A DNA stretch of 64,000 nucleotides from Candidatus Levyibacteriota bacterium (GTDB taxonomy: Bacteria > Patescibacteriota > Microgenomatia > Levybacterales > UBA12049). The notes under the pieces are model-generated. The model was not told the origin of the DNA and searched no databases. It saw only the letters and a program-made list of their open reading frames with translations. Positions 39,888-55,850 of the stretch are shown piece after piece; the first letter of the stretch is position 1; every line of letters starts with the position of its first letter. Location of the stretch: assembly GCA_016432345.1 (NCBI GenBank), contig CP066685.1, positions 496,236-560,235 on the forward strand. Reading direction: 5' to 3'. The position numbers and the translations under genes were made by a program.

Positions 39888-39959
39888 GGACCTGTGGTTC
39901 AGTGGTAGAGCGTTCGCTTCACATGCGAAAGGCCGATGGTTCGAATCCATCCAGGTCCA
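39888..39959 (+). tRNA. tRNA-Val (anticodon CAC)
   Basis: Manual cloverleaf: acceptor GGACCTG/CAGGTCC, D arm GTTC/GAGC, anticodon stem TTCGC/GCGAA with loop TTCACAT, and T arm GATGG-TTCGAAT-CCATC. CCA is not encoded. Confidence 0.93.
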
Positions 39960-40662
39960 CAGATTGAGATAATCTAATCCATGTTTCTGCAGTTGCCGCG
40001 ATATCTTTCCAGCGTTTTCCTAAAAGGGCGCCGACATGGCTTACTCCTTTGAATTTAAAATAGTCCGCATTATAGTATTTTGCAATTTCTAGACTAACTT
40101 TTGGTGTTATATCAACGTCTGCTCCGCCAGAAATAACTAATACTCTTGCTTTAATTTTTTCTTTGTTTATTGATAATCCGCTTCGTAGTTGTTTAATTAC
40201 TTTTCCAGATTCATCCCGCCACTGCGGGTGAGCCCATAAAATTGTTTTTTTCGTTGCCTCGGGCATGCAGTCAGTGGTATCTTGTAATGTGGATTCTGTG
40301 CTCCATTTTATAACATCCGGCACATGTGTAGATTTTTTAATTGGCCAAGGTGGAGCGCTGTTTACCAATACAATTTTAGCAACATCTTCGACTTCTCCAA
40401 TTTTTTGGGCCAGCCAGCCGCCCATGCTTGCGCCTATCACAATTGGTTTTTGTTTGATTGTCGCAACTATTTTTTGTAGCTGTTTGACATAGTCAAAAAT
40501 ACTAACATCCTTGAGGGGTTTTTTGTTTCCGTTGAGTGTTGGCGCATAGCATCTATATTCGTGTGACTCAAAATATATTTTCCAGTATTCCCATTCCCAT
40601 CCGCCGCCGCCTGCGCCGTGGATAAAAATAATTGGCGGTTTTTTGTTTATTTTTCTTTCCAT
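39919..40662 (-). CDS. Alpha/beta-fold hydrolase, last gene of the TPP-riboswitch operon
   Basis: It has IFIHGAGGGGWEW and the nucleophile elbow GASMGGW. Its start overlaps the permease stop by 16 nt. Its 3' 41 nt are antisense to tRNA-Val. Confidence 0.7.
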   Translation of the reverse strand: MERKINKKPPIIFIHGAGGGGWEWEYWKIYFESHEYRCYAPTLNGNKKPLKDVSIFDYVKQLQKIVATIKQKPIVIGASMGGWLAQKIGEVEDVAKIVLVNSAPPWPIKKSTHVPDVIKWSTESTLQDTTDCMPEATKKTILWAHPQWRDESGKVIKQLRSGLSINKEKIKARVLVISGGADVDITPKVSLEIAKYYNADYFKFKGVSHVGALLGKRWKDIAATAETWIRLSQSVDLDGFEPSAFRM

Positions 40663-41402
40663 GGTAAAAGCATTTTTTCGAGAATACTAACCAAGATAAA
40701 AAGCAGCATGCTCAGTAGCGTTGTTACAAAAATCGTGGCAAAAACAAGTGAAATTGCGTAGGCGTTTGCAGCGGTTTGAATAAAAACACCTAGTCCCTTT
40801 TCTGCGCCAACATATTCCCCAACCATCGCCCCGGTAATGCTGTATGTTACGGCAATTTTAAGCCCTGAAAAAAAAGCCGGGAGAGCGGAGGGGAATTTAA
40901 GTAATCGCATAGTGTCTATATATGATGCGTTCATAGTTTTAAAAAGGTTTATAAATTCTTTATCAATGCGGGAAAATCCATCGGACATAGCAATTGTAAT
41001 TGGAAAGTAACAAAAAAGTGTTACTACAACAACTTTTGACCATATATCAAACCCAAGCCATATTAAAAGAAGGGGCGCAAGAGCAATAATGGGAATAGTT
41101 TGCGATGTTACTAAAATTGGATAGACTGCCCGTTTTACCCATGAAGATGTATCCAGTAAAACCGCAGTTGTTATACCAATAACAATTGCAGTAAAAATAC
41201 CAATAAGCGTTTCTATTAATGTTTGTTGTACGTGGGGAAGGATAATATTCCAGTTTCGAAAAAAAGCTTGCATAATAACAATGGGTGATGGAAGAAGTTG
41301 GTTGCTAATTTGTGACGTTTGCACGAATATTTCCCACACTGTAAAAAGTGTTGTAAAAAGGACAAAGGCAGGACCAAGATTAATGATTGTTTTTAGTTTC
41401 AT
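40647..41402 (-). CDS. ABC transporter permease (ThiX/SsuC/TauC-like)
   Basis: It has 6 TM helices and the binding-protein-dependent permease signature region. Its start overlaps the ATPase stop in an ATGA arrangement. Confidence 0.85.
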   Translation of the reverse strand: MKLKTIINLGPAFVLFTTLFTVWEIFVQTSQISNQLLPSPIVIMQAFFRNWNIILPHVQQTLIETLIGIFTAIVIGITTAVLLDTSSWVKRAVYPILVTSQTIPIIALAPLLLIWLGFDIWSKVVVVTLFCYFPITIAMSDGFSRIDKEFINLFKTMNASYIDTMRLLKFPSALPAFFSGLKIAVTYSITGAMVGEYVGAEKGLGVFIQTAANAYAISLVFATIFVTTLLSMLLFILVSILEKMLLPWKEK

Positions 41403-42160
41403 AGATTAAGAAGTAGCTGTTCAAGTAGTTGTTCGATTTCAACTGTTTTTTTGTCTTTTAGAAACTCGTGTTTTCTTGGTCTTGGAAGGTTAATATTTAC
41501 TTCTTTAATAATTGTTGCGGGACTGCTGCTTAAAACATATATCCTGTCGGAAAGAAGAATAGCTTCTCTTATATCATGAGTTACAAATAAAACGCTTGAT
41601 TTATATGTTTGCCAAACATCTAAAAGCCACATTTGCATAGAAAGTCTAGTTAGCGCATCAAGCGCTCCAAAGGGTTCGTCCATAAGTAGAAACTGATTAT
41701 TAAAAAGTATAGTTCTTAAAAGCGCCACCCGCTGCGCCATGCCTCCAGAAAGTGCATGAGGATAATAGTTGGCATAATCTGAAAGTCCAAATTTTTTAAG
41801 CATGTTACATGCTTCTTGTTTGGCTTTTTTTTCTGAAATGCGTTTTAGAGTTAGCCCCAACATAACGTTTTCCAAAACAGTTTTCCAGGGTAGAAGGAGT
41901 GGTTTTTGCAGCATGTAGCCTGACTTTCCAAGTAGTTTTTGGTTTTTTTGTTTATCTATGTATATTGTTCCAGTGGTTTGTTTTTCAAGGCCCGCAAGGA
42001 TATTAAGAAGTGTTGTTTTGCCGCAGCCGCTTGGTCCAATAATACTTACAAATTCACCATAATTAATGCGCATGGAAATTGAGGAAACGGTGTATGTTAG
42101 GGAACTGTTTAGAGAAAATGTTTTTGATAGATTTTTAACTTCTAGTTTGGGAGTCGTCAT
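41399..42160 (-). CDS. ABC transporter ATP-binding protein (ThiZ/NitT/TauT family)
   Basis: It has Walker A GPSGCGKTT, the signature LSGGMAQRVAL and Walker B FLLMDEPFGALD. The ATG at 42160 (MTTPKLEVKNL) is preferred because the longer ORF overlaps the upstream gene. Confidence 0.9.
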   Translation of the reverse strand: MTTPKLEVKNLSKTFSLNSSLTYTVSSISMRINYGEFVSIIGPSGCGKTTLLNILAGLEKQTTGTIYIDKQKNQKLLGKSGYMLQKPLLLPWKTVLENVMLGLTLKRISEKKAKQEACNMLKKFGLSDYANYYPHALSGGMAQRVALLRTILFNNQFLLMDEPFGALDALTRLSMQMWLLDVWQTYKSSVLFVTHDIREAILLSDRIYVLSSSPATIIKEVNINLPRPRKHEFLKDKKTVEIEQLLEQLLLNL

Positions 42161-42168
42161 GAAGCGCG

Positions 42169-43206
42169 CTACTTGAAAAACTGATTTGTGTATAACTTGG
42201 TAAAATCTAATGTCGTTACTGCCGAGCCTGATGCATCTTTTATTTGGCCTGTACTTAAAATAAACTTTGGAAATTCTGTCCAGGCTTTTTCGTCTTGAAC
42301 TCCCCATGGTTTATCTGGGTCCGTGTAACGAGGACTTAGATATTTTTGGCTTTCGACAACAAATTCTTTGTCATCAAACATTCCTTTTTGCGCAGAGTCA
42401 ATAAGGATTTGCGCCGACTCTTCTGGATTTTGTATAGCAAAATTATATCCTTTGGTGGTTGCTTTGATAAACTTTCTCAAAATCTCTGGCCTTCCTTTTA
42501 TTTGTGTGGGGCCGGAAATAAGGACCGGGGTATAGTAATCGGGAATACCATATTTTATAAGGGAAAATGAAACAAGTTTTACTCCCTGTCGTTTTGCTTG
42601 CACGCCTGTCCAGGCATCAAAAATCCAAACAAAATCAATTTTTTTGGTTTCTAAGGCTTTTATGCCGTCTATATCCAGCATGACTGTTTTAAAATTTCCT
42701 TTTCCATTATTTTTTTTGATCATTTCTGAAATAACTGCATTTTCAAACGGAGCGCCAAACCCGCCATAGATTTTTCCATCAAGATCTTTTGGAGTTTTTA
42801 TGCCAGAGTTTTCTGTTGCGGCAAGAGAGGAGGTGTTATGTCGAATAATTGTGGCAATTGATACCACAGGATTGCCAGAGGCAACAGATGTAACAACGCC
42901 TTCTGTATAACTTACGCCAACATCTGCTTTATTCGTTGAAACTAATATTTCGGATGAAACGTTTCCAGAATAGGGAAGAATTTTAACTTCGATTCCTTCG
43001 TTTTTGTAGTATCCTTTTTTTTGCGCCACATAAATACCTGTGTGGTTGGTATTGGGCGTATAGTCTAGGGCAAGCGTTACTGCTGTCAGTTTGGGCGTTT
43101 CTATTGGCGGTTTTGCAGGTTTTCTATTTTGTAACAAAAATAATCCTACTAGACCAAGAAGAACAATAAATGTTGCAAAAATGTATTTTATAGGTAGTTT
43201 TATCAT
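42169..43206 (-). CDS. NMT1/THI5-like periplasmic substrate-binding protein (ThiY-like)
   Basis: It has an N-terminal anchor and LALDYTPNTNHTGIYVAQKKGYYKNEGIEV, typical of NMT1/ThiY binding proteins. The ATG at 43206 is preferred because the ATG at 43221 lies inside the riboswitch. Confidence 0.8.
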   Translation of the reverse strand: MIKLPIKYIFATFIVLLGLVGLFLLQNRKPAKPPIETPKLTAVTLALDYTPNTNHTGIYVAQKKGYYKNEGIEVKILPYSGNVSSEILVSTNKADVGVSYTEGVVTSVASGNPVVSIATIIRHNTSSLAATENSGIKTPKDLDGKIYGGFGAPFENAVISEMIKKNNGKGNFKTVMLDIDGIKALETKKIDFVWIFDAWTGVQAKRQGVKLVSFSLIKYGIPDYYTPVLISGPTQIKGRPEILRKFIKATTKGYNFAIQNPEESAQILIDSAQKGMFDDKEFVVESQKYLSPRYTDPDKPWGVQDEKAWTEFPKFILSTGQIKDASGSAVTTLDFTKLYTNQFFK

Positions 43207-43292
43207 TTCCTTCGTCGGCATTACCCGAACAGGTTCAAAGGGTCGTCGCCTTAAGCAACCTCTCAGCCCATCTATTGAGCTCCCCTATTTAT
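43207..43292 (-). promoter_or_regulatory. TPP (THI-box) riboswitch
   Basis: The minus strand reads ...AUAGGGGAGCUCAAUAGAUGGGCUGAGAGGUUGCUUAAGGCGACGACCCUUUGAACCUGUUCGGGUAAUGCCGACGAAGGAAAUG. The conserved CUGAGA, ACCCUUUGAACCUG and GGUAAUGCC..CG.AGG blocks are all present. Its 3' end contains the SD/start codon. Confidence 0.85.
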
Positions 43293-43298
43293 GTGATT

Positions 43299-43327
43299 AT
43301 AATAAAACATGTTGATTTGTTTGTCAA
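43299..43327 (-). promoter_or_regulatory. Promoter of the riboswitch operon (TTGACA-17 nt-TATTAT)
   Basis: On the minus strand, TTGACA lies at 43327-43322 and overlaps the TPK stop codon. TATTAT lies at 43304-43299, just upstream of the aptamer. Confidence 0.55.
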
Positions 43328-43965
43328 CTCCGATTTAAAATGTGGACAAAAAGCAATTGTCCTTCCCCCATATCTACAGATACTTCTTTTTGGGTGAATA
43401 TATTACTGATGCCGCGTGATTTGCCAAAAAAAAGCGATTCGTTTTTCAAAGAGTATTTTAGATTTATTGTTGTAATATGAGAAACTTCTTTACTAAGCGG
43501 AATAAGGGAAAGCAGGTCATTTATGTCTCCTTTTATTTGTACCAGCTTTGGACCCTTTTCTACCCAGGCAATAATTGCGCCGTGAATGTACCTAACGGGT
43601 ATATTGGTACCAGCAAGAAGTGAAATGTTTGCTAAAATATGATCTATTCGATTACCCTCGATACCGCCAATAATGTCTATTTCTGTGGCATTATTGTCAA
43701 TTGCGTATTGTATGGCAAGTTCGGTGTCTGCTTCGTTTTTGGTTGCGGGATAAGTAACAAAAACAGTCCCCCTTTTTTTTAGCAAATCGCGTGTTTTTGT
43801 ATCTATAGAATCCATATCGCCAATAACAGCTTCGGGTATATAATTCCATTCCAAAGCGGTTTTGGCGCCAGAGTCGGCGGCGATTATTTTGTCGGCTATC
43901 TTTAGTGATTGGGTAATAATTTTTCCTTTTTCTATCCTACCGCCGGTAAAAATAACGTAGCGCAT
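43324..43965 (-). CDS. thiN: Thiamine pyrophosphokinase
   Basis: MRYVIFTGGRI...IIAADSGA...VIGDMDSI and the C-terminal thiamine-binding beta domain match TPK. The ATG at 43965 is preferred over the TTG at 44004. Confidence 0.82.
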   Translation of the reverse strand: MRYVIFTGGRIEKGKIITQSLKIADKIIAADSGAKTALEWNYIPEAVIGDMDSIDTKTRDLLKKRGTVFVTYPATKNEADTELAIQYAIDNNATEIDIIGGIEGNRIDHILANISLLAGTNIPVRYIHGAIIAWVEKGPKLVQIKGDINDLLSLIPLSKEVSHITTINLKYSLKNESLFFGKSRGISNIFTQKEVSVDMGEGQLLFVHILNRS

Positions 43966-44061
43966 AGAATGTATTCTACAAAAAAAATGAAGCAGTGTAT
44001 ACAACCTATAGTTTGCTTTTAGTTGGAAGAGATGGTATACTTTTGTACTTAATCATAAAAT

Positions 44062-45190
44062 ATGAGAGCAAGACAAGAATTAGAGACAAGACTAAATTTA
44101 GAAAAAAGGGATAATTCTGTTGAACAATATTTAAATGAGATAGGTAGGTATAGTTTGTTGTCTCGCGAAGAAGAGATAGGGTTTGGTAAAAAAGCGGATA
44201 GAGGGAGATATGCTTCAGCGCTACTTGGATATATATCAGGAGAAGAAATTGTTTGTAAGGGGTCATCGCCTGTTGCTCTTGATTTACTAAATGAATTTAG
44301 ACTTTGGCCATATGCCGAACTTGTTTTTGAGGATAAGAAACCAGAGCAAGAAATGAAGTTAGATAGAAGGTTGGCAAGGTCGGTGATAGGAATAAAAGTT
44401 TTAGATGAAGATGCTTTTGTTGATCGGCTTAGGGATTTGCAAGGTTGTTTACAAGAATATGTTTTAGATGGAGTTGAAGCAGAAAAAGAAATGATAAATG
44501 GAAATCTCCGTTTGGTTGTTTCGGTGGCCAAAAAATATATCGGCAGAGGGGTATCTTTTTTGGATATGATTCAAGATGGAAATGAAGGTTTAATAAAAGG
44601 GAGTAAAAAAATATCAATGGGAAAAAGGGTATAAGCTTTCTACATATTTAACACCTTGGATAATCCAGGGAGTAACACGGGCAATTGCCAATTACGGACA
44701 AATAGTTAGAGTTCCTGTGCAGGTGCATGATGACGCAAAAAAAGTCGCTTTTGTAGAAGGAAAACTTATGCAGGAAGGACTTGGACAAGAACCGACAGCA
44801 GAACAAATTGCCGCTGATCCAGCAGCAAAATTAAGCGTGGAAGCAATAAGAAGAGTTATGTTTGTTCGAACAACTATTGGTAGGATTTTAAGTCTTGATG
44901 AGCCGTCAGAATCAGATGGATATGAAGGAACAAAATTAAGTGATTTTGTACAGTCGGAGGACCCTGCGGTTGAAGATGAGGCGCTTAGAAATGTGCAAGG
45001 AGGAGAGGCAAAAAAAATTTTAGGGACTTTTACACCCAACGAGGAAAAAATCTTAAATTTATTATTTGGGTTGAAAGATGGGGTACCAAGAAGAGAATTG
45101 GATGTTGCAGAAATATTGGGTATTACACAACAGCGAGTTAGTGCTGTTAGAGCTAAAGTCCTGAAAAGATTAAGAGATAGTTTAAGGTAA
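44062..45190 (+). CDS. rpoD: RNA polymerase sigma-70 factor (RpoD/SigA-like), interrupted by a 1-nt frameshift
   Basis: Frame 1 (44062-44634) encodes regions 1.2 to 2.2 (NLRLVVSVAKKY, FLDMIQDGNEGLIKG) and then terminates. The +1 frame, open from 44597, continues with VKKYQWEKGYKLSTYLTPWIIQGVTRAIANYGQIVRVPVQV (regions 2.3-2.4) and regions 3-4 up to 45190. The junction lies at AAAAGGGAGTAAAAAAA (44595-44611). Confidence 0.85.
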
Positions 45191-45215: not shown

Positions 45216-48200
45216 TTATAACATTTTCCTCATTTTAAGATAAGATAATCCTGTTGCTCCAAATAACAAAACCCCAGCAATCGGCAAAAAATTTATTTTA
45301 TTTTTTTCTTGCAGAGTTGGTTTATCTGCAGATTTGGATTCGACAGTTTGCTGATCTAATTTTGATTCTTTTTTGAGTTCTTCTTTTGGTTTTGGTTCTA
45401 TTTTTGCTCCCAGCACATTTTCTTTAAAGCCCGCTGCCGCGCCTTGTTCGGAAAATCCAATTGGCGTAGCGGCAATTTCGTTGGAGTAATCTCCTGGGGT
45501 ACATCCATTGCCCGCCCGTACTCTAAAATAATATGTCTGTCCGCCGGAGAGATTTTCTACCACAAAATTGGTTGTTCCTTTTCCTCCAATGTTGGGGTTG
45601 CCATACTGCAATTTTCCAGGCTCTGTTCCATAGGCAATAAGGTAATACGAAATTGGCCCCGCCCCTTCTTTCCATGATAGTGCGACGGTGTTGATGCCGG
45701 CAAAAGTGGAAGTGAGGGTAGGCGCGCTTTGTGGCTTTTCGTCGTTGCAAGTTGCAGCAGAGGTGGAGTTTGAAGATGTAGAAGATGAGGAACTAGAACT
45801 TGAAGCAGTTACTGTCGGTGTTGGTGTCGGAGTCGGAGTTGGAGTAGGTGTTGGTGTGGGAGTGAGCGTTGGGTCGCTGGCAAGGGTAATACTTCGTTCG
45901 TCGGTTACCTGCTCGGGCGAGCCGCGGGAAATAAGGCGGTAGTAGTAGGTTTTTCCAGGCAGCAAATCGGTGATTGTTACAGAATGGTTTTTTGTTTTTG
46001 TTGGTTTTTCGTCGGTTCCATTGTCGTATCCATATTTAGTTCCAGAGCCTTTGACTTTTTTTGACTGGCTGCCAAAAACAACGCGACTATACGATGGTCT
46101 ATCGGTTGTCCAGGTAACAGTAAAAGAAGTCGCGGTATTTTCGGCAACGGTTATTGACGTATCGTCAATTTTTGGGGCGATTTCATATTCTTCTGTGAGC
46201 GTGTCGCTTAGATTACCTGCAGTATCTTTTGCTACCGTTTTGAGTGTTACACTGCTGCCGTCAATTATAATTGGCGCAACGTAGATGAGTCTGGCGCTGG
46301 AGGTGGAAGGATCTGTTCCATCGAGGGTATAAAAAATGGTAGGTTTATTAGGTGCATCAAGACTTGTAATTTCAATTGATCGTGGTTTTAGATATTTATC
46401 TCCTGGAATGTCCACTGTAGGTTTGGTTGGAGGAATGCCATCTGTTGGAGTGGTAGTTTGTTGGTTATTCCATTTGTCTGATGAGATATCTTTAATGCCA
46501 GTTCCTGTTCCATTTCCTTTGAGGGTAACAATCGGTGTTTTTCCTGCGTCATTTGGTTCTGTTGTTTCTTCAATAGTTATTGTAACTTTGTTTTTCTCAT
46601 TGCCATCTCGTTTTGCGGTAACAACTTTGTATCCTTCAACATTAAAATCAGAATTATTGCTTGATTCATTTACTGTGTTCGCGTTTACATCCCGTACAAA
46701 AGTTACCTCAATTTTATCTATTTTGCCGTTGTTATTGGTATCAAGGGTTTTGGTGCTTTTTATTTGCGGTGGTGTGGTATCAGTTGGTGTTGTATCGTTG
46801 CTTTCGCCATTTTGTTTATATCCCAGAGAAAACGTCGCCGGCTCATCATTTTTTGTTTGGCTCGAAATTTTGTTTACAGTTGCGCTGCCAGTTGCTGTAT
46901 GTCGATACGTTTCAAGCTTAAATTGGTTTATGACAGCGCTTGTTGTTGCAACAGTAATGCTATATGTGTCGTTATTTGGTTTAGGTATTAGCAGCATTTT
47001 ATAGTCTGGACTTGTAGTTTCGCTTATTGGATCTTTAATGCCATGCTCTAGATAATAGATAGCGTTTGGTATATCGGTATAGGTGGTTGTGCCATTACTG
47101 CCTGCTTTTTGACCACTGCTATTTGTTAGATATATGTCAACATCTGGGTCTACAACAACTATTAGATACGAAAGATTCGTATTAGAAGGGATAAATCGTC
47201 TCATGGAAAGAAAAGTATCGTTGTATGAGGCTAAAGTTGTCCTCTCATCGTAAAAAGGATCGTTAATATCAAAAGTTGTTCCATTGATTCCCTTGGCAAC
47301 AATAAAATGTCCTGGTTCTTCAAGTATTACTGGATTATTACTATCTAATTGGTTTTTTAATTTAGTTTTGTCATTGTCGCCCCACACAAATTCTAAGGCA
47401 TCAAAATCAGTGATATTATTTACTGTTTTTGCAAGTTTGGATAAGTCGGCTATGGCTGCCCAATTTACTTTGCCTCGTATATAGCCACCATCGCCACCTT
47501 CATAATTTTTTAACCAAAGATTTAGAGTATCTGGTTGGAGATCAGATCCATCTGGCAATTTTTTAATACCATAGTAATTAAGTATCATTGCAGCCGATGT
47601 CATAGCACATCCCCAGCGATTGATTGTTGTTGCTTCTCCAGTTTTTGCCCAATCGGTTGCAGTGTCATATTCTAATCCCTGCCACGGCTCCGAAGTTTGC
47701 TTAAGTAGCGGAACATCGAGCGGAGAATCGATGTTCGTAACAACAATGTTATCAAACCAGACTTCTGAATCTGGATCTGCGCCAACGCTTGCTTGAAGAC
47801 CAATTGTTCCACCATCAAAATAAGGCGAAGAATCCTCCAATTTCCAGATTTCATCATTGTTAATAAATAATTTAATTACATTTTTAGAAAATTCTATTTT
47901 AAAATGGTATGTTTGGTTATCCTGAAAAGAATATGATTTTTGTTCTACTCGATAGTAACTTCCTATAACTTTTTGAAAGTATATAGTTGATCCGTAAGTC
48001 ATAAAGTCATACCAATTAGAGGAGTCTAAATACTTAAATAGGATGTTTCTATTAGCTATAGCTGTGTTTTTATATTCCATATCAAAGCTGTACGAGTATC
48101 CAATAAAGCCAGAAAGATCAAAATTGTTTGGAATAATTTCAGTTGTGCAACTTGGACCGTTTATTCTAATACCAGCCTTGCCATTTTCTATATTCCAAGT

Positions 48201-48404
48201 AGTAGGGATACCCCCGTACAAACAGGACTTTGATGTATTTGAGTATTGTGTGTTTCTTTTAACAGCCCAATTATTTAAATTTCCTGTATCAAAGTTTTCT
48301 TGGAATACTTTATGAGAGGCAAAGCTTTGTGAAGTAAAAAATAGACTAATAAAAGCCAAAAAAATAAAAACAAAAAGAAACCTGAGGGCCATCAGTTTCT
48401 TCAC
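45216..48404 (-). CDS. Large multidomain surface protein: signal peptide, LamG/ConA-like lectin, C39-like cysteine peptidase, Ig/FN3-like repeats, (TP)n/poly-Ser linker, FN3 and C-terminal anchor
   Basis: 1062 aa. The C39-like core carries Cys in RWGCAMTSAAMILNYYG and His in PGHFIVAKG. FYTLDGTDPS is chitobiase-C-like. TVTWTTDRPSYSRVVFG and LSWKEGAGPISYYLIAYG are FN3-like. The C-terminus LPIAGVLLFGATGLSYLKMRKML is a hydrophobic segment followed by a basic tail. Confidence 0.8.
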   Translation of the reverse strand: MKKLMALRFLFVFIFLAFISLFFTSQSFASHKVFQENFDTGNLNNWAVKRNTQYSNTSKSCLYGGIPTTWNIENGKAGIRINGPSCTTEIIPNNFDLSGFIGYSYSFDMEYKNTAIANRNILFKYLDSSNWYDFMTYGSTIYFQKVIGSYYRVEQKSYSFQDNQTYHFKIEFSKNVIKLFINNDEIWKLEDSSPYFDGGTIGLQASVGADPDSEVWFDNIVVTNIDSPLDVPLLKQTSEPWQGLEYDTATDWAKTGEATTINRWGCAMTSAAMILNYYGIKKLPDGSDLQPDTLNLWLKNYEGGDGGYIRGKVNWAAIADLSKLAKTVNNITDFDALEFVWGDNDKTKLKNQLDSNNPVILEEPGHFIVAKGINGTTFDINDPFYDERTTLASYNDTFLSMRRFIPSNTNLSYLIVVVDPDVDIYLTNSSGQKAGSNGTTTYTDIPNAIYYLEHGIKDPISETTSPDYKMLLIPKPNNDTYSITVATTSAVINQFKLETYRHTATGSATVNKISSQTKNDEPATFSLGYKQNGESNDTTPTDTTPPQIKSTKTLDTNNNGKIDKIEVTFVRDVNANTVNESSNNSDFNVEGYKVVTAKRDGNEKNKVTITIEETTEPNDAGKTPIVTLKGNGTGTGIKDISSDKWNNQQTTTPTDGIPPTKPTVDIPGDKYLKPRSIEITSLDAPNKPTIFYTLDGTDPSTSSARLIYVAPIIIDGSSVTLKTVAKDTAGNLSDTLTEEYEIAPKIDDTSITVAENTATSFTVTWTTDRPSYSRVVFGSQSKKVKGSGTKYGYDNGTDEKPTKTKNHSVTITDLLPGKTYYYRLISRGSPEQVTDERSITLASDPTLTPTPTPTPTPTPTPTPTVTASSSSSSSSTSSNSTSAATCNDEKPQSAPTLTSTFAGINTVALSWKEGAGPISYYLIAYGTEPGKLQYGNPNIGGKGTTNFVVENLSGGQTYYFRVRAGNGCTPGDYSNEIAATPIGFSEQGAAAGFKENVLGAKIEPKPKEELKKESKLDQQTVESKSADKPTLQEKNKINFLPIAGVLLFGATGLSYLKMRKML
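45813..45863 (-). repeat. Coding hexanucleotide repeat encoding (Thr-Pro)8-Thr linker, followed by a poly-Ser run
   Basis: TPTPTPTPTPTPTPTPT is encoded with varied synonymous codons. The adjacent SSSSSSSSTSS run is at about 45769-45810. Confidence 0.9.
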
Positions 48405-48470: not shown

Positions 48471-49211
48471 GTGAGTAAATCAGATAGAAGAAAAAAACAT
48501 GAGGATTTTCATAAAAATACCCATATACAAAAGAGACTAATAAATGTAAATAATTTTACATACAGAATTATTATCTCTGTCATAAATAAATATTTAAAAG
48601 GAAAAAAGAAAATTTTAGATATTGGTTGTGGTGCTGGCACTATATGTTTATATTTAGCGGGTAAAGGATATGATGTGCTTGGAATAGACATTTCTCAAAA
48701 TGCTATTAATTCGTGCAATGAAAGTGCTAAAGTTTTGGGATTAGAAAATGTTAATTTTGAAAGAAAAACATTTCCCACAGAAATTCCTAATGATAAATTT
48801 GATTATATTATTTGCAGTGAGGTTATAGAGCACCTTGAGGACGATGATTTTGCTCTAAAAAAAATATATGCGCTTCTTAAACCTAATGGTATTGCCATTT
48901 TTTCTACTCCTTCAGAAAATGCTCCACTTTATAAACTTGGTTTAGCAAAGGAATTTGATGATAAAGTTGGTCATTTAAGACGATATACCGTGGAAAAATT
49001 GGTAGCGAAATGTAAAACAAACAATTTTTCTATTCTAGAAACAAGAAAAACAGAGGGTGTTTTAAGAAATTTTTTATTCCTAAATCCAGTTGCAGGTAAA
49101 TTTGTTCGTTTTATTAAATTTTTTATTTCTGATATCGTGACTTTTTTTGATGAAATATCCTTGAGATTATTTGGAGAATCACAAATTTTCGTAGTTGTTA
49201 AAAAGTTATGA
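48471..49211 (+). CDS. Class I SAM-dependent methyltransferase
   Basis: SAM motif I is ILDIGCGAGTICLYLA, and the post-I acidic residue is in VLGIDIS. The gene uses a GTG start; there is no in-frame ATG before motif I. Confidence 0.82.
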   Translation: MSKSDRRKKHEDFHKNTHIQKRLINVNNFTYRIIISVINKYLKGKKKILDIGCGAGTICLYLAGKGYDVLGIDISQNAINSCNESAKVLGLENVNFERKTFPTEIPNDKFDYIICSEVIEHLEDDDFALKKIYALLKPNGIAIFSTPSENAPLYKLGLAKEFDDKVGHLRRYTVEKLVAKCKTNNFSILETRKTEGVLRNFLFLNPVAGKFVRFIKFFISDIVTFFDEISLRLFGESQIFVVVKKL

Positions 49212-49951
49212 TCTCCTTTTTTTTTGGGAGGGGTTACAATTTTGAAGCGCATATAGTTTTAACTATAAATAAATTTTATATAGCAGTTTTTTTGTTTTTG
49301 CTGATTGTTATTCCTTTTATTACGTTTACATTGCAAAAAAAGAGCAGTGAGCCGTCTGTTACGAATTTTATACCTACTATTGCTCCGAGCGCCACAGAGA
49401 AGACTACCGCAACAATTACGGAATTTGTGCCGGTATCGGAAAGTCCACAGGATAATCAACAATTGACACCTCCGCCATTTTATCCAGGTTTGTCATGGAC
49501 ACTTGTAGACAAACAAGAACTAAAAAAAAGTATAGGTGATTATAAGGTTCATTATTCAAGCAAAAATCACGATGGTAATTTTTCTCTTTCTGGCAAAGAG
49601 TGGGTGGGGGTAAAACAAAAAATCTCACAAGTTGAATTAAACAAAATGGAAGGTGATTTTACTAATTACTATAACGACAAGCTTACAAAGCTTGGGTGGG
49701 AATCTTCAACAGAAACAAATGGATTTTTGCTTCAATCTATAGCTGCTGATGGTCCTAGTGGCGGTATTTGGGGATATGTTAAAGTAGAAAACGAAACAAC
49801 ATTAGAAGCCATTATTTTACAAAAAGAAACGCCAACTTCTCTTTTTTCTCCTCCAGAAGGAGATCCTGATCCATGTCCTTGTGATATTACCTTTCGAATA
49901 TTTGTAAGTAATCCCCAAGACCTTACAAAAGTTTTACCTACATCTCCTTAA
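49208..49951 (+). CDS. Hypothetical membrane-anchored extracytoplasmic protein
   Basis: 247 aa with one TM helix (FYIAVFLFLLIVIPFITF) and a Thr/Pro-rich linker. I recognise no family. Confidence 0.5.
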   Translation: MISFFFGRGYNFEAHIVLTINKFYIAVFLFLLIVIPFITFTLQKKSSEPSVTNFIPTIAPSATEKTTATITEFVPVSESPQDNQQLTPPPFYPGLSWTLVDKQELKKSIGDYKVHYSSKNHDGNFSLSGKEWVGVKQKISQVELNKMEGDFTNYYNDKLTKLGWESSTETNGFLLQSIAADGPSGGIWGYVKVENETTLEAIILQKETPTSLFSPPEGDPDPCPCDITFRIFVSNPQDLTKVLPTSP

Positions 49952-49952
49952 T

Positions 49953-50981
49953 ATGACTATACTTTTTTTTGCCAGGTTGTTTTGGCCTCATGGGGGTGGG
50001 GTGGAGACGCATGTTTTGGAAGTGGGGAAAAGGTTAATTGGAAAAGGATATAAGGTTGTAGTTGTTACCGAATTATTAGCAAAGACAAAAGAAAAAGAAA
50101 ATATAGGGGGGATTGAGATTTTTAGAATTCCGGTTGGGAAAGATAATTGGTTTAAGAAATTTAGAATTTGGAAGTGGTTTTGGCAAAACAGAAAGTTAAT
50201 CCAGCAAGCAGATATTGCGCATGCTCACGACGTTTTCTTTTGGTACCTGCCTTTTCGTTTTCTCTATCTTAACAAACCAATCTATACTACCTTCCATGGC
50301 TACGAAACAAAATTCCCTCCGGCAAAGAAAGCAATTTTCGTTCGTAGGCTAAGCGAGAAGCTCTCTTGGGGAAACATTTGTGTAGGAGACTATATTAAAA
50401 AGTGGTACAAGACAAAACCGAACTACATTACTTACGGAGGCGTGAACGTCCACCTCGGAGGAGTCATGGTTTCGCAAGCTCAGCAGCCTGCCACCATCCG
50501 AGGTGAAGACCAAAAACTTAACATACTTTTCATCGGGAGATTGGAGGAGGATATTGGGATTAGCTTGTATTTACAAGCTATACGAAAGATGAAAAAGACC
50601 AGAAATGTAGATGTTATTTTTTTGGGAGATGGGAGTTTTCGACATGAGGCAGAGAAGTTGGGCAGAGTTACAACATTTCAAGAGAAGTTTGTCGTCCAGG
50701 CAGATGTGGTATTTGCCTCTTCATATCTTTCGATGCTGTCTGCCATGGCTGCCAAAAAACCAGTTGTTGCCGTGTATACAAATTCTCTAAAAAAAGATTA
50801 CTTAACTATGACACCGTTTGCAAAGTTTATAACGATTGTTGATTCTCTTGATAAGATTGTGGATACAGTAAAAAATTTAGAGAAAACAAACCAGATGGTC
50901 GATCAGGCATATGACTGGGTAAAAGGTCAGACATGGGAGAAGATAGTTAATCTATATATAAAATTGTGGAAGATGAATTAA
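49953..50981 (+). CDS. Glycosyltransferase family 1 (GT-B)
   Basis: The sequence shows FWPHGGGVETHV and ILFIGRLEEDIG. A locally GC-rich stretch lies at about 50434-50510 in the interdomain linker. Confidence 0.8.
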   Translation: MTILFFARLFWPHGGGVETHVLEVGKRLIGKGYKVVVVTELLAKTKEKENIGGIEIFRIPVGKDNWFKKFRIWKWFWQNRKLIQQADIAHAHDVFFWYLPFRFLYLNKPIYTTFHGYETKFPPAKKAIFVRRLSEKLSWGNICVGDYIKKWYKTKPNYITYGGVNVHLGGVMVSQAQQPATIRGEDQKLNILFIGRLEEDIGISLYLQAIRKMKKTRNVDVIFLGDGSFRHEAEKLGRVTTFQEKFVVQADVVFASSYLSMLSAMAAKKPVVAVYTNSLKKDYLTMTPFAKFITIVDSLDKIVDTVKNLEKTNQMVDQAYDWVKGQTWEKIVNLYIKLWKMN

Positions 50982-51041
50982 CTATGATCTTTCGAAAGAT
51001 CAAAAGAAATTCAGATTAGATTGATTTGACAGTAATAAATT

Positions 51042-51992
51042 ATGAAGATAAGTTTTATTTCGACTGTTTACAATGAGGAGAAGACGATTGGATGGATGCT
51101 AGAGAGTTTGGCAAAACAGACGAGGATGCCAGACGAGATGATTATTGTAGATGGAGATTCAACCGACAGTACGCTGTCGGTAATTTTCAATTTTCAATTT
51201 TCAATTTTCAATCAAAACACAAAAAATAAATTTTCAAAAATAAAAATACTTACAAAAAAAGGGAATCGGGCGGTGGGACGAAATGAGGCGATAAGAAATG
51301 CGACAGGCGATATTATTGTATGTTCGGATGCGGGATGCCAGTTGGATAAGGATTGGGTGAAGAATATTGTGAAGCCGTTTGAAAATCCAAAAGTAGATGT
51401 TGTCGCAGGGTACTATGCAGCAAAGCCACAATCGATCTTTCAAAAATGCCTGGTGCCATATGTGCTTGTTATGCCAGATAAGATTGACCCTAAAAATTTT
51501 CTTCCGGCATCCCGCACAATGGCATTTAGAAAATCTATTTGGGAAAAAGTTGGTGGGTTTCCAGAAAGATACTCGCATAACGAAGATTATGTTTTTGCAA
51601 AGAAGTTAAAGCACATTGGAGTAAATATCGTTTTTGCCAAAGATGCCATTGTTTACTGGATGCCTCGAAAGAATCTAAAGCAAGCATTCATTATGTTTTT
51701 CCGCTTTGCCTTTGGCGACGCAGAAGCTCGTATTTTTCGCCCAAAAGTTTTTTTGATTTTCGTTCGTTATTTATTTGTATTTTTTCTCATTTTTTTACTT
51801 ATTGGTTTTCAACTATACGCTATACGCTATACGCTATACGCTATGTTTTTATTGTACGTGACGTGGTCTGTTTGGAAGAACTACAAATACGTTGCAGACT
51901 GGCGCGCAATCGTAATTTTGCCTATACTACAAATAACTGCTGATATTGCAGTAATTTTGGGAACGATATGGGGTATACAACACAGGCAATAA
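51042..51992 (+). CDS. Glycosyltransferase family 2 with C-terminal TM region
   Basis: The sequence shows ISFISTVYNEE, IIVDGDSTDST, GRNEAIRNA and CSDAG, with C-terminal hydrophobic helices. It carries cassettes at 51183-51213 and 51813-51844. Confidence 0.85.
   Translation: MKISFISTVYNEEKTIGWMLESLAKQTRMPDEMIIVDGDSTDSTLSVIFNFQFSIFNQNTKNKFSKIKILTKKGNRAVGRNEAIRNATGDIIVCSDAGCQLDKDWVKNIVKPFENPKVDVVAGYYAAKPQSIFQKCLVPYVLVMPDKIDPKNFLPASRTMAFRKSIWEKVGGFPERYSHNEDYVFAKKLKHIGVNIVFAKDAIVYWMPRKNLKQAFIMFFRFAFGDAEARIFRPKVFLIFVRYLFVFFLIFLLIGFQLYAIRYTLYAMFLLYVTWSVWKNYKYVADWRAIVILPILQITADIAVILGTIWGIQHRQ
51183..51213 (+). repeat. Perfect heptanucleotide array (AATTTTC)x4.4 in a GT2 gene
   Basis: Period-7 identity holds from 51183 to 51213. 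It encodes IFNFQFSIFN just after the DGDSTDST motif. Confidence 0.95.
51813..51844 (+). repeat. Perfect heptanucleotide array (CTATACG)x4.6 in the same GT2 gene
   Basis: Period-7 identity holds from 51813 to 51844. It encodes LYAIRYTLYAM within the C-terminal hydrophobic region. Confidence 0.95.
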
Positions 51993-53191
51993 AAGGGATT
52001 TCGTGGGTTGGTCTTCTTCGGGGAACGACGCGAATTGTATCATTTGCAAAAATTGCCATTCTGGCCAGAATTTTAACCCCAGCCCAATTTGGCGTGTATG
52101 GCATTGCCGCACTTGCCCTGTCTTTTTTAGATGTCCTGACCGAGACAGGAGTAAATGTTATTTTAATACAAGAAAAAGACGATATTGACCGACATATCAG
52201 TTCGGCATGGATTGTGTCGATAGCGCGAGGAATTTTAATGTCGGGGGTTATATTGGTTATGGCGCCGTTTGTTGCTGGTTTTTTCCAAAGCCCTGATTCG
52301 CTTTTTTTGTTGCAGCTAATTAGTATTGTGCCTTTGCTTCGCGGATTTATTAACCCTTCGGTGGTAAAGTTTCAAAGAGATTTACAGTTTAAGAAAGAGT
52401 TTTTATACCGGTCGGTGTTGTTCGTAATCGATGCTGGTACGGCGGTTGCAGTTGCCTTTGCCACTCATCAAGCGGCAAGTATTGTGGTTGGGTTGATTGT
52501 GGGGGTGGTTGTCGAAGCAGTATTGTCTTTTGTTGTTGCGAAGCCAAGGCCAACACTGCGGTTTGAAAACGAGTATATTGCCAAGATATTTCATAGGGGA
52601 AAATGGGTAACATTGTCGGGAGTATTCCAGTACTTATTCCAAAATGTCGACAACATTGTGGTTGGTAAGTTGCTTGGTACTGGGTCGCTTGGGCTTTATC
52701 AGCTTGGGTATTCCATATCTATTTTACCAATTAGCGAAGTGGCAGATGTGGTATCTCGGGTGACTTTTCCTGTTTATACAAAGATAGCAGATGATACCGA
52801 CAGGCTTCGTAAAGCATTTATGCGGACTGTTATGATTATTGCATGCGTTACGATTCCTTTTGGGATTATTTTGTTTTTCTTTTCCGAACAGCTAATTACT
52901 CTTGTATTTGGAAAGCAGTGGGTGGGTGTTGTTCCCGCTCTTCGAGTTTTGGCTATTTTTGGCGTTATTCGCGCAGTGTTTGGTTTTTGCGCCACGCTTT
53001 TTTTGGCAGTTGGAAAGCAAGAATATATTACCGTGGCAACGCTTGCAAGTATTACAGCCATGGGATTAGTTATTGTGCCGTTTGTTAATTCGTTTGGGTT
53101 GATTGGCGCAGCGTATGCAGCACTTGTTGGGTCAGTTTTTGGGAGCATTGTTTTTAGTTTTTTTACCATTAAGGTTTTGTATTCTAAATGA
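51968..53191 (+). CDS. Polysaccharide biosynthesis protein / Wzx-like MOP-family flippase
   Basis: 407 aa with about 12 TM helices. The N-terminus KGISWVGLLRGTTRIVSFAKIAILARILTPAQFG is typical of PST-family flippases. Confidence 0.78.
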   Translation: MGYTTQAIKGISWVGLLRGTTRIVSFAKIAILARILTPAQFGVYGIAALALSFLDVLTETGVNVILIQEKDDIDRHISSAWIVSIARGILMSGVILVMAPFVAGFFQSPDSLFLLQLISIVPLLRGFINPSVVKFQRDLQFKKEFLYRSVLFVIDAGTAVAVAFATHQAASIVVGLIVGVVVEAVLSFVVAKPRPTLRFENEYIAKIFHRGKWVTLSGVFQYLFQNVDNIVVGKLLGTGSLGLYQLGYSISILPISEVADVVSRVTFPVYTKIADDTDRLRKAFMRTVMIIACVTIPFGIILFFFSEQLITLVFGKQWVGVVPALRVLAIFGVIRAVFGFCATLFLAVGKQEYITVATLASITAMGLVIVPFVNSFGLIGAAYAALVGSVFGSIVFSFFTIKVLYSK

Positions 53192-54288
53192 AAATTGCAT
53201 TTTTTCATGAATTACCGTTTGGGGGGGCGCATCGCGTGGTTGTAGAATACGGAAAAATACTTTCCAAAAACCACGATGTCGATGTGTTTTATGTGGACAG
53301 GGAGGAAGAAAAAAATCTGGAGTCGATTTTTAATAAGTCTTATTTTTTTCGGTTTTCCCAAAAAAGCGGTCGTGGGTGGTGGGGGACACGTTTGTATAAC
53401 GATACTTTAGGGCTTTTTTTCTTGTCTATTTTGCATTGGCGGATAGCTCGGTTAATTGACGAGCAGAAATACGATTTTGTTTTTGTGCATCCGTCAAAAT
53501 TTACCCAAGCCCCTTTTGTGTTGCGGTTTCTTAAAAGCCCAATCATATATTTTTGCCAAGAGCCGCTTAGACTAGCATACGATCCATTTATATCAAGACT
53601 TCCAGACGTTTCGCTGCCAAAAATGTTATATGAGAAATCTGTGCGTTTTATGAGAAAAGTTATTGATAGGTCAAATGTTGGATTTTGTGATTTTATTTTG
53701 GTAAATTCGTCTTTTTCTAAAAAAACTATACAGCAAGCATATGGTAAAGATGCAACAGTTTGTTATTTGGGCGTAGATGAGAATAATTTTAAACAAATAC
53801 CAAGTAAAAATGAATACGATGTACTTTTTGTTGGACAAAAAATAGCTGTTGAGGGGTATGATTTATTGGAAGAGGCGTTGTCTTATTTTCCCAAAAAAAT
53901 AAAAGTAAAAGTTATTGAAAGAAATTTACAGGGAGAGGGGATAGCAGATAGACAACTTGCAGAAGAAATAAATAGCGCAAAAATTGTTGTGGCTTTAAGT
54001 CGAAATGAACCATTTGGATTAACTGTTTTGGAGGCAATGGCCTGTGGCGCGCCGGTTGTTGCGGTAAAAGAAGGAGGATATATTGAGACAGTTATAGATG
54101 GGGAGACAGGATTTTTAATTGACAGAAATCCAAATGAGTTGTATGAAAAAATTAGTATACTTCTTGCAGATGGAAAGTTAAGAGAAAGATTTGGAGAATA
54201 TGGCAAGCATCATGTTTTACAAAATTGGACATGGGAAAAAAGTGTCGAGAGATTTTTAAAAATAATTTCGCAAGGAGGGGAAAAATAA
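53188..54288 (+). CDS. Glycosyltransferase family 1 (GT-B)
   Basis: The sequence shows VLFVGQK and SRNEPFGLTVLEAMACGAPVVA (E-x7-E region). Confidence 0.85.
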   Translation: MKIAFFHELPFGGAHRVVVEYGKILSKNHDVDVFYVDREEEKNLESIFNKSYFFRFSQKSGRGWWGTRLYNDTLGLFFLSILHWRIARLIDEQKYDFVFVHPSKFTQAPFVLRFLKSPIIYFCQEPLRLAYDPFISRLPDVSLPKMLYEKSVRFMRKVIDRSNVGFCDFILVNSSFSKKTIQQAYGKDATVCYLGVDENNFKQIPSKNEYDVLFVGQKIAVEGYDLLEEALSYFPKKIKVKVIERNLQGEGIADRQLAEEINSAKIVVALSRNEPFGLTVLEAMACGAPVVAVKEGGYIETVIDGETGFLIDRNPNELYEKISILLADGKLRERFGEYGKHHVLQNWTWEKSVERFLKIISQGGEK

Positions 54289-55088
54289 TTATTTCAATTA
54301 TTATTGTTCACTACAAAGTAGAAAAAGAGCTTTTTGATTGTTTAAATTCAATTGAAAAATCACAACAAAAAAGTATTTACGAAATTATTGTGATTGATAA
54401 CAATGAAGAGCCGACAATAAAATCAGAGCTTTCTAAAAAATTTCCTAATGTAATTTACATTAAGACAAATAAAAATATAGGTTTTGGAGCGGCCAATAAT
54501 CTTGGCGCAAAAGTGGCAAAAGGCGAATTTTTATTTTTTCTAAATCCCGATACAAAAGTTTTTCTTAATACAATTGATGCGTTGATTAATTTTTTAAAAA
54601 ATCATCACCATGCAGGAATTGTGGCGCCGCTTCTTCTTAATAAAAAATGTAATCCTTATTCATTACAAGGAAGTGCAGTGTTGACACCATTTCGGGCAAT
54701 TATGTGTTTGTCATTTATTCAAAAACTTTTCCCAGAAAATATAATATACAAAGAGTATTACCTTTTAGATTGGGATAAGAAGTTTATAAGAGAAGTTGAT
54801 GTGATTCCTGGGACAGCATTTCTTGTGAGGAAAAAAATCTTTGAAGAAGTCGGTGGGTTTGACGAGCGATTTTTTCTTTTTTTCGAAGAAAATGATTTGT
54901 GCATGCGTGTTAAAGAATTTGGATACAAAATATATATAACGCCAAATGCAAAAGTTATGCATCTGTGGGGTGAAAGCACCAAAAGTTTGCCAAATACAAA
55001 GGAAATATTTAAAAAAAGCAGAGAGTATTATTTTCAAAAGTACTTCGGTTTTTTCTGGGCATCTGTTGTTGAGCTATTTTGCAGATGA
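54225..55088 (+). CDS. Glycosyltransferase family 2
   Basis: The sequence shows ISIIIVHYK, VIDNN, GFGAANNLG and FLNPDT. The start is uncertain: TTG at 54225 or ATG at 54231 would overlap the upstream gene by about 60 nt. A strong AAGGAGG SD at 54272-54278 points instead to ATA at 54285 or ATT at 54288. Confidence 0.8.
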   Translation: MDMGKKCREIFKNNFARRGKIIISIIIVHYKVEKELFDCLNSIEKSQQKSIYEIIVIDNNEEPTIKSELSKKFPNVIYIKTNKNIGFGAANNLGAKVAKGEFLFFLNPDTKVFLNTIDALINFLKNHHHAGIVAPLLLNKKCNPYSLQGSAVLTPFRAIMCLSFIQKLFPENIIYKEYYLLDWDKKFIREVDVIPGTAFLVRKKIFEEVGGFDERFFLFFEENDLCMRVKEFGYKIYITPNAKVMHLWGESTKSLPNTKEIFKKSREYYFQKYFGFFWASVVELFCR

Positions 55089-55100
55089 TACAATATAGTT

Positions 55101-55850
55101 ATGATTAGCGCTGTTATTCTTACCAAAAACGAAGAGGAGAATATAGAGGTTTGTATAAAAGGACTTCGGTGGTGCAATGAGGTAATTGTTGTTGATGATA
55201 ATTCAACCGACAAAACAAGAGAAATTGCAGAAAAATTAGGCGCCAAAGTAATTGATCATAGTTTAAATAATAATTTTTCTGAAGCGCGGAATTATGGATT
55301 GGAACAGACAAAAGGGGAATGGGTTTTATTTGTTGATGCAGACGAGCGGATTTCGGATTCGTTAGCTTTCGAAATAGGCAGTATGCTTACCATGCAGGCG
55401 GTTGACGCATATGATGCATTTTACATAAGAAGGATAGATACGATATGGGGAAGACAGCTGTTGCATGGAGAAAATGGTATGGTAAAGTTTATTCGGTTGG
55501 CCAAAAAAACAAAAGGTGAATGGAAAGGGGCGGTGCATGAAACATGGCAAATAAAAGGAAGGGTCGGACAGTTGAAGAATCCTCTTTATCATTATCCGCA
55601 CCAGACAGTTTCGGAGTTTTTAACAGAAATAAATTATTATACTACCATTCGGGCGCAGGAATTATACAAAAAAAGAGTAAAAGTGCATGTGTGGGATATA
55701 ATTTTGTATCCAAAGGCAAAGTTTTTTGTTAATTATGTTTTAAAAAGAGGTTTTCTTGATGGTATGCCAGGATTAGTTGTTGCGATACTCATGAGTTTTC
55801 ATTCCTATCTTGTCCGCGGTAAATTGTGGTTGCTATGGCAGAAAAAATAG
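55101..55850 (+). CDS. Glycosyltransferase family 2 (WaaE/Kdo-core-type)
   Basis: The sequence shows ISAVILTKNEEENI, VVDDNSTDKT, RNYGL and FVDADE. Confidence 0.85.
   Translation: MISAVILTKNEEENIEVCIKGLRWCNEVIVVDDNSTDKTREIAEKLGAKVIDHSLNNNFSEARNYGLEQTKGEWVLFVDADERISDSLAFEIGSMLTMQAVDAYDAFYIRRIDTIWGRQLLHGENGMVKFIRLAKKTKGEWKGAVHETWQIKGRVGQLKNPLYHYPHQTVSEFLTEINYYTTIRAQELYKKRVKVHVWDIILYPKAKFFVNYVLKRGFLDGMPGLVVAILMSFHSYLVRGKLWLLWQKK

Follow-up and report, generated by a model that had tools for sequence, protein, structure and literature searches.

The sigma-70 family gene at positions 44062-45190 (plus strand) of the DNA analysed here is divided into two halves by a single frame change of 1 nucleotide (nt), and the question it raises is whether such a gene reflects an assembly error, a gene that has died, or a gene that is still expressed in full length by some kind of recoding. 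The DNA derives from a metagenome-assembled genome of Candidatus Levybacteria, a small-genome groundwater bacterium, and the window (the whole stretch that was analysed, to which all positions refer) comprises 64 kb read out of a genome of 762,565 bp. We consider it probable that the gene is a recent pseudogene, in which a recent insertion from replication slippage, now fixed, has inactivated an accessory RpoD-like sigma factor. The lesion is present in the DNA of the population, the product is of a non-canonical RpoD type, the positional orthologues are intact, and the unusual residues of the protein are a trait of its family.

In frame 0, an ATG at 44062 opens a reading frame that runs to DGNEGLIKGSKKISMGKRV and ends after 190 amino acids (aa) at a premature TAA at 44632-34; in a longer excerpt, the end of this product reads DMIQDGNEGLIKGSKKISMGKRV. 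The +1 frame is shut by two adjoining stops, TAA TAA at 44591-96 (44591..44596, plus strand), and then continues with KGVKKYQWEKGYKLSTYLTPWIIQGVTRAIANYGQIVRVPVQV up to the stop at 45188-90. As these stops form the 5' bound and the frame-0 TAA (44632..44634, plus strand) the 3' bound, the frame change must lie within 44597-44631, a 35-nt interval with the runs A4G3 (44595-601), A7 (44605-11) and A5G3 (44622-29). The upstream open reading frame (ORF; 44062..44634, plus strand, frame 0, 190 aa, QQG40479.1), whose exact protein is found in NCBI and Logan, encodes region 1.2, a lineage-specific non-conserved region and regions 2.1-2.2 (Pfam r1_2 and r2), and its tail consists of 10-11 out-of-frame codons followed by the premature stop. 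The downstream frame (44597..45190, plus strand, +1) is open from just past the TAA TAA and carries regions 2.3-2.4, 3 and 4.2. NCBI lists both halves as hypothetical proteins (QQG40479.1 and QQG40480.1), the downstream one from 44717 onward (plus strand) as annotated fragments of 155 and 157 aa. Position 44717 is the first start codon in that frame, a GTG; a split sigma factor made as two polypeptides was considered and rejected, because initiation there would leave out region 2.3-2.4.

Removing one base in silico, either from A4G3A (44595-44602) or from A7 (44605-11), yields a protein of 375 aa. The two repaired versions are identical except for residue 181, which is valine after a deletion in A4, G3 or A44602 (...LIKGVKKY...) and serine after a deletion in A7 (...LIKGSKKY...). 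Peptides spanning the repaired junction read GLIKGSKKYQWEK or GLIKGVKKYQWEK; a -2 shift or +2 insertion would give GLIKGSKKKYQWEK instead, and the frame-0 tail is ISMGKRV. Compared with solved SigA/RpoD chains, the repaired protein aligns free of gaps over the junction (best 7ckq_F, E=1.6e-51, colinear over residues 139-372), and the Pfam Sigma70_r2 match at residues 145-208 bridges it as well; judged by these alignments, a colinear match across the junction is far beyond chance. The frames and the 1-nt split given in the initial annotation were thereby borne out in every detail, as were the conserved sigma sequence in the +1 frame and the full-length product predicted at about 375 aa by way of A4G3 or A7, which came to 375 aa either way.

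The initial annotation had left it open whether the break exists in the organism at all and named an assembly error as one option. The exact 190-aa product was also called on six Logan contigs, which are independent short-read assemblies of other sequencing runs, five of them of the SRR121134xx type (SRR12113419, SRR12113385, SRR12113433, SRR12113428, SRR12113425) together with SRR4343430. All six match the window at 100% identity over 1,354-4,463 bp, A4G3AGTA7 included, and run unbroken through the site. Six independent assemblies with the same sequence refute the assembly-error option; a homopolymer artefact is very unlikely, and the extra base is part of the natural population's DNA. Coding sequence makes up 95% of the window, and within its 64 kb no other gene is visibly split and no other homopolymer-linked break was seen. 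It holds 128 A/T runs of at least seven bases inside other, intact ORFs, which argues that the assembly has no general homopolymer problem. Short reads handle A7 and G3 runs accurately.

As to the kind of sigma factor that was hit, the repaired protein clearly falls within the sigma-70 family by Pfam (r2 1.1e-15, r1_2 4.7e-10); its region 4 match is weak at 20.3 bits vs a cut-off of 24.1, and region 3 was not detected by Pfam. The NCBIfam models for RpoD/SigA all score below their cut-offs (TIGR02997, 202 vs 384.5; NF006666, 201 vs 572; NF004208, 200.5 vs 555), and the next-best models are RpoS, SigB and SigC. All of the 120 best database homologues are canonical RpoDs, with a top identity of 41-42% that extends over the C-terminal two thirds only. 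At the RpoD-invariant columns, defined as those at least 95% conserved among these 120 homologues, the window protein departs in 38/103 cases; a first count without added subfamily members had given 37/102. The changes include region 2.4, where the first Trp of the WW dyad is replaced by Pro and the adjacent Arg by Ile, the ADQARTIRIPVHM block of RpoD, which reads ANYGQIVRVPVQV in the window protein, and region 4.2, where TRERIRQIE has become TQQRVSAVR. Over nine marker positions, WRQRHRERQ in RpoD corresponds to PIYQQQQSA, and the near-invariant residues (WW dyad, R436-equivalent, TRERIRQIE) are not retained. The core-binding regions 2.1-2.2 are ~82% identical to the RpoD consensus by our own count on the alignment, and ~64% identical to five canonical RpoDs.

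The closest canonical match, P0001, represents the Levybacteria RpoD type, a protein of ~360 aa with region 1.1 present. It shares at least 85% identity with more than 120 clusters, many of them named RpoD of Candidatus Levybacteria by NCBI, and nine NCBI-named Levybacteria RpoD entries share a mutual identity of 83-98%. The window gene reaches 34-40% identity to this type, depending on the method (P0001 and P0458, the latter being MBI2031564.1); its protein has no region 1.1 and was not found to be orthologous to the Levybacteria RpoD. Both belong to the same superfamily with the region order 1.2, 2, 3, 4 and well-conserved regions 2.1-2.2, and SigA/RpoD are the closest solved structures to the window protein. 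In contrast to the Levybacteria RpoD, however, the window gene sits at another locus, is frameshifted, codes for an insertion, specific to the lineage, that separates region 1.2 from region 2.1, and counts determinants of -10/-35 promoter recognition among its 38 changed invariants. The gene can also be compared with the group-2-like alternative sigmas, which are non-essential RpoD paralogues (RpoS, cyanobacterial SigB-E, Streptomyces HrdA-D). It resembles them as an RpoD-derived and presumably dispensable paralogue with regions 1.2-4.2 retained and region 1.1 absent, and its next-best scores are those with the RpoS, SigB and SigC models. It differs from them in being much more divergent in regions 2.4 and 4.2 and in having orthologues of only 29-35% identity vs 62-84% for neighbour genes. 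The gene would thus be a divergent accessory RpoD-like paralogue and not the housekeeping sigma, a role that the initial annotation had entertained and that was not borne out by scores of ~200 bits vs 384-572, the 38/103 departures and 34-40% vs 83-98% identity. Conservation across the class suggests that a canonical rpoD of ~360 aa elsewhere in the 762,565-bp genome does the housekeeping; a second sigma factor was not found within the 64-kb window. A link to anti-phage defence was also looked for and rejected, the sole match being generic sigma homology to MzaA, with no partner proteins present.

Relatives of the gene are distant. No close orthologue above ~45% identity was found among 5.8 billion clustered proteins or in an exhaustive search of 1.84 billion cluster representatives, a sigma-based scan of genome contigs found nothing, and a metagenome scan with the neighbouring secreted protein returned distant Fn3 matches only. 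A word-indexed search that used the subfamily alignment as its profile was overwhelmed by canonical RpoDs and missed 4/6 of its own members (P0135, P0136, P0142, P0143); as its list was saturated by RpoDs, absence from this search is weak evidence. In the exhaustive HMMER search of the 1.84 billion cluster representatives, the top matches were the window's own two fragments, followed by three partly matching proteins that are 37-45% identical (P0132-P0134). The best full-length colinear relatives are 34-37% identical (P0135, P0136, P0142, P0143, P0177, P0249). They are singletons on short Logan contigs and have in common with the window protein the lineage-specific segment between regions 1.2 and 2.1.

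Three loci carry a sigma gene convergent to a homologue of the 1062-aa secreted protein that adjoins the gene in the window, and because of this arrangement their sigmas are regarded as positional orthologues. These are P0136 on L010 (394 aa, intact; neighbour protein 62% identical), which is preceded by a tandem sigma paralogue of 388 aa, P0143 on L008 (394 aa, intact; neighbour protein 65% identical), and a sigma of 374 aa, likewise intact, on the GTDB representative contig L011 (neighbour 65% identical overall and 74% in the best segment). The family loci are 44062-45190 in the window, L011:10518-11642, L010:27-2385, L008:221-1405 and L007:72-1274. Genes for a thiamine transporter and a thiamin pyrophosphokinase are also found near the sigma gene in L011. 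In all three positional orthologues a single intact ORF runs through the equivalent position, and the frameshift is therefore lineage-specific; the comparison of orthologues, which the initial annotation had brought up as a way to judge the break, accordingly found it absent from 3/3 at 29-35% identity.

The three orthologues are 29-35% identical to the window sigma, whereas the flanking genes are 62-84% identical. Against L011 alone, the flanks reach 84% (ParB), 74% (ThiY-like), 70% (permease), 66% (signal peptidase) and 65% (ATPase), compared with 29-31% for the sigma. These comparisons place the window gene in a family of RpoD-derived paralogues that evolves rapidly, and the pattern suggests an accessory family with gene turnover. 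The canonical -10/-35 recognition residues have been lost to differing degrees among its members. The family genes adjoin the giant secreted protein or, in L007, glycosyltransferases, and a hypervariable accessory sigma linked to cell-surface genes is suggested. L011 is the 39,695-bp contig CAZIZQ010000004.1, with the public title 'uncultured Gammaproteobacteria bacterium'; its genes are syntenic with, and 65-84% identical to, those of the Levybacteria window, and the taxonomic label of this bin is probably wrong.

The position of the extra base can be narrowed to the stretch 44595..44611 (plus strand, AAAAGGGAGTAAAAAAA) and no further, either A7 or A4G3A being a possible site. Valine at the position of residue 181 is at least 95% conserved in canonical RpoD and fits a deletion in A4G3A. 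The two closest positional orthologues have threonine there, which makes serine, and thus a deletion in A7, equally plausible. A7 is the more mutation-prone run. Its association with the break is merely suggestive, because the window contains 135 A/T runs of at least seven bases (128 of them those within other, intact ORFs), and the chance of such a run in any 35-nt interval, estimated from these counts, is ~9%. A Ty1-like +1 site, AAA-AGG-G at 44623-29, was tried as the ancestral junction and rejected: the +1-frame VKKYQWEK fits the family consensus, whereas the frame-0 SKKISMGK does not. AGG is relatively infrequent in the window, with 5.0 per 1000 codons.

The unusual residues might be taken for decay that followed the break. 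The intact relatives, however, show mismatches at the RpoD-invariant columns just as often or more so (42/103 in L011, 41/103 in P0143 and 49/103 in the tandem copy on L010, against 38/103 in the window), and are thus equally or more divergent, so that these residues are a family trait and not post-break decay. In the intact orthologues and the window alike, few mismatches lie upstream of the junction and many downstream, and the ratio of downstream to upstream identity is 0.80 for the window protein, inside the spread of 0.92 +/- 0.18 found for the family. Nearly all of the divergence accordingly built up while the gene was read as one ORF.

The course of events that we favour, and hold to be probable, is as follows. 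Replication slippage in the A-rich stretch 44595-44611 most likely gave rise to a single-nucleotide insertion, which would have become fixed in the population and recently inactivated an accessory, hypervariable RpoD-like sigma. Housekeeping transcription would be carried out by the canonical rpoD presumed elsewhere in the genome, the truncated 190-aa product would be non-functional, and any full-length protein would stem from background errors of decoding or transcription only. Among the options considered in the initial annotation, the pseudogene is thus the one best supported, by the real lesion and the intact orthologues; the premise that a housekeeping gene was affected was wrong.

Several observations weigh against a pseudogene. 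No stop is found in the 190 + 197 codons of the two halves, whereas the alternative frames hold 16-20 each, so that accumulating stops, one of the two signs by which the initial annotation would have recognised a plain pseudogene, are missing. About 6% of all possible single substitutions make a stop, and neutral drift beyond ~0.08 substitutions per site would carry a 95% chance of one. Divergence in the downstream half does not exceed that of the intact orthologues. From two pristine halves it follows that the insertion is recent or that the downstream frame is still translated, and they fit a very young pseudogene and a still-translated gene equally well. Pseudogenes also appear to be rare in this compact genome, as no other broken gene is visible in the 64-kb window. 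Finally, the canonical rpoD of the host genome itself was not among the matches listed nor in the ten clusters inspected.

The alternative that survives best, although we regard it as unlikely, is a gene that remains functional because RNA polymerase slips on A7 (giving A6 or A9) or tRNA-Lys slips by +1/-2 on AAA AAA A. Such a bypass might be leakiness that corrects the break, or a deliberate means of throttling expression. It would account for two intact halves that have diverged no further than the intact orthologues, and the site has some suitable elements. The AAA AAA A sequence lets tRNA-Lys re-pair perfectly in the +1 frame, and the AAA codons are preceded, at a distance of 1-4 nt, by GGGAG, which is similar to a Shine-Dalgarno (SD) motif. 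This arrangement resembles the +1 frameshifting site of prfB (RF2) in its AAA to AAA re-pairing codon and the SD-like element shortly upstream. In contrast to prfB, the window site has neither a stop nor an especially rare A-site codon, the codons in question being used 24.6 (ATA), 10.1 (GGG) and 9.8 (AGT) times per 1000 in the window, and it is not conserved in the orthologues L011 (374 aa), P0143 and P0136 (394 aa), all intact. SD-like motifs precede only 11/60 ORFs of the window, which makes an internal SD-like stimulator doubtful. RNA folding found no significant structure around the site in comparison with shuffled controls (z = 0.15 upstream; -1.2 to -1.9 downstream, marginally better).

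Precedents for rescue at poly-A tracts exist. Documented bacterial slippage sites consist of 9-11 A or T bases (PMC5009743, PMC4256274); the A11 tract of tssM1 in C. rodentium gives 20-25% frameshifting (PMC4256274), and the rescue of interrupted genes at poly-A tracts in endosymbionts has been reviewed (PMC5009743). The G7 run of herpes simplex virus (HSV) thymidine kinase shows that very low compensatory frameshifting can be biologically sufficient (PMC5009743). Genome-wide data from E. coli and Buchnera revealed that the frequency of transcript insertions grows exponentially with the length of an A/T run, that errors at such runs are overwhelmingly insertions, ~80% of them of a single nucleotide, and that deletions are rarely tied to homopolymers and G/C runs are without slippage (PMC5574713). 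The window gene has in common with the known cases (Buchnera, Blochmannia, tssM1 A11, dnaX/mxiE A9/T9) that a frameshifted gene lies beside an A run in an AT-rich small genome. However, the longest A run at the site has 7 bases (44605-11) vs 9-11 at these sites (PMC5009743, PMC4256274), restoration of the frame needs -1 or +2 where single insertions dominate (PMC5574713), and none of the three positional orthologues shares the frameshift. The rescue on the A run put forward in the initial annotation, by slippage or +1 shifting, is therefore supported by no tested feature (A7 is short, no codon at the site is especially rare and folding gave no significant structure), and nothing in the sequence appears to argue for programmed recoding. 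We think it quite unlikely that slippage on GGGAGU-A7, whether of the ribosome (+1/-2) or of RNA polymerase, still supplies full-length sigma in small and perhaps regulated amounts.

A phase-variable switch, in which slipped-strand mispairing at A7 toggles the sigma, perhaps along with the adjacent surface-protein and glycan genes, and in which the sampled population is in the OFF state, has a small chance of being true. The lesion lies in or beside a homopolymer, the gene belongs to a fast-evolving family with gene turnover, and it adjoins a giant secreted protein and a surface-glycan cluster, functions that are often phase-variable. However, the same allele was found in six/six assemblies from at least six runs, with unbroken contigs and no tract polymorphism at the assembly level, and 128 comparable runs are stably in-frame in other genes. 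Contingency-locus tracts typically have at least 8 bases, and A7 is short for such a locus.

Even less probable is that the 190-aa fragment (regions 1.2-2.2) has been kept as a functional protein, for example as a competitor for binding to core RNA polymerase, with the downstream half dispensable. The fragment is delimited by a start and a stop codon of its own and is the best-conserved part, as seen in the identity of its regions 2.1-2.2 to the RpoD consensus (~82%) and to the five RpoDs (~64%). Yet the intact orthologues, too, are conserved upstream and divergent downstream, so that this contrast is no sign of retention, the downstream frame is fully open, which is unexpected if it has long been dispensable, and region 2 would be severed in the middle of a compact domain. 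The weakest alternative, a sequencing or assembly artefact in a genome whose true gene is intact, would suit a metagenome-assembled source and the classic homopolymer indel error, but is barely credible given six identical independent assemblies, the lack of a second homopolymer-linked break within 64 kb and runs (A7 and G3) comfortably inside short-read accuracy.

For annotation, HYV37_02820 and HYV37_02825 are to be read as two halves of one frameshifted sigma-70 family gene, not as two hypothetical proteins, and the gene is not to be taken as the organism's rpoD. Were this the genome's sole sigma, or were the break bypassed, an ultra-small bacterium would offer a natural example of recoding; no tested feature points there. 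Low-level slippage, if true, would amount to a throttle or gate on a hypervariable accessory sigma whose neighbours are a giant surface protein and a surface-glycan cluster. To our knowledge, such a case would be without precedent both as a recoded sigma factor and as recoding in a bacterium of the candidate phyla radiation (CPR). A search of the literature on CPR sigma factors and on the source genome found nothing specific. The more noteworthy lead, a by-product of the analysis, is the fast-evolving syntenic sigma family: some Levybacteria carry RpoD-derived sigmas that evolve several times faster than their neighbours, have lost canonical -10/-35 residues, adjoin cell-surface genes and undergo turnover, in the form of a tandem duplication in one relative and the frameshift here.

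The secreted protein of 1062 aa (45216..48404, minus strand), convergent to the sigma gene and used as the synteny anchor, contains a C39-like peptidase, Fn3, CHB_HEX_C and PT/S-rich linkers according to Pfam. Its N-terminal part is 3-keto-disaccharide-hydrolase/LamG-like, and it also has a (TP)n linker and a run of serines; it is 62-74% identical in the relatives, always convergent to the variable sigma gene. A surface-polysaccharide cluster follows downstream of it (48471-57000, plus strand), with genes for GT4 and GT2 glycosyltransferases, a Polysacc_synt_3 flippase and a methyltransferase. L011 has a methyltransferase at the corresponding position, and the two, 29% identical, are not orthologous.

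Directly upstream of the sigma gene, a compact thiamine-salvage module is formed by a riboswitch, a transporter and a pyrophosphokinase. The thiamine pyrophosphate (TPP) riboswitch (43190-43296, minus strand; Rfam RF00059, 67 bits) lies upstream of genes for an NMT1/THI5-like binding protein and an ATP-binding cassette (ABC) transporter (40647-43221, minus strand), and the thiamin pyrophosphokinase gene (43324-44004, minus strand) adjoins this unit. The same thiamine genes surround the orthologous sigma in L011 in another order.

Near the sigma gene, promoter-like sites are no commoner than in shuffled sequence, and terminator-like hairpins number 7 vs 0.8 expected in shuffles. Several genes of the window instead carry a box resembling TATAAT or TACAAT only 5-12 nt ahead of the start codon, and the ORFs at 33768, 37682, 11653, 55101 and 24694 are examples of the pattern of rare SD motifs and -10-like boxes. 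Since SD-like motifs are rare and such boxes lie 5-12 nt from the starts, leaderless or very short-leader mRNAs are suggested, together with a canonical -10 specificity of the main sigma. Further away, the gene for tRNA-Val(CAC) at 39888-39960 (plus strand) overlaps by ~42 nt the 3' end of the longest ORF of an opposite-strand alpha/beta-hydrolase (39919-40662, minus strand, putative end).

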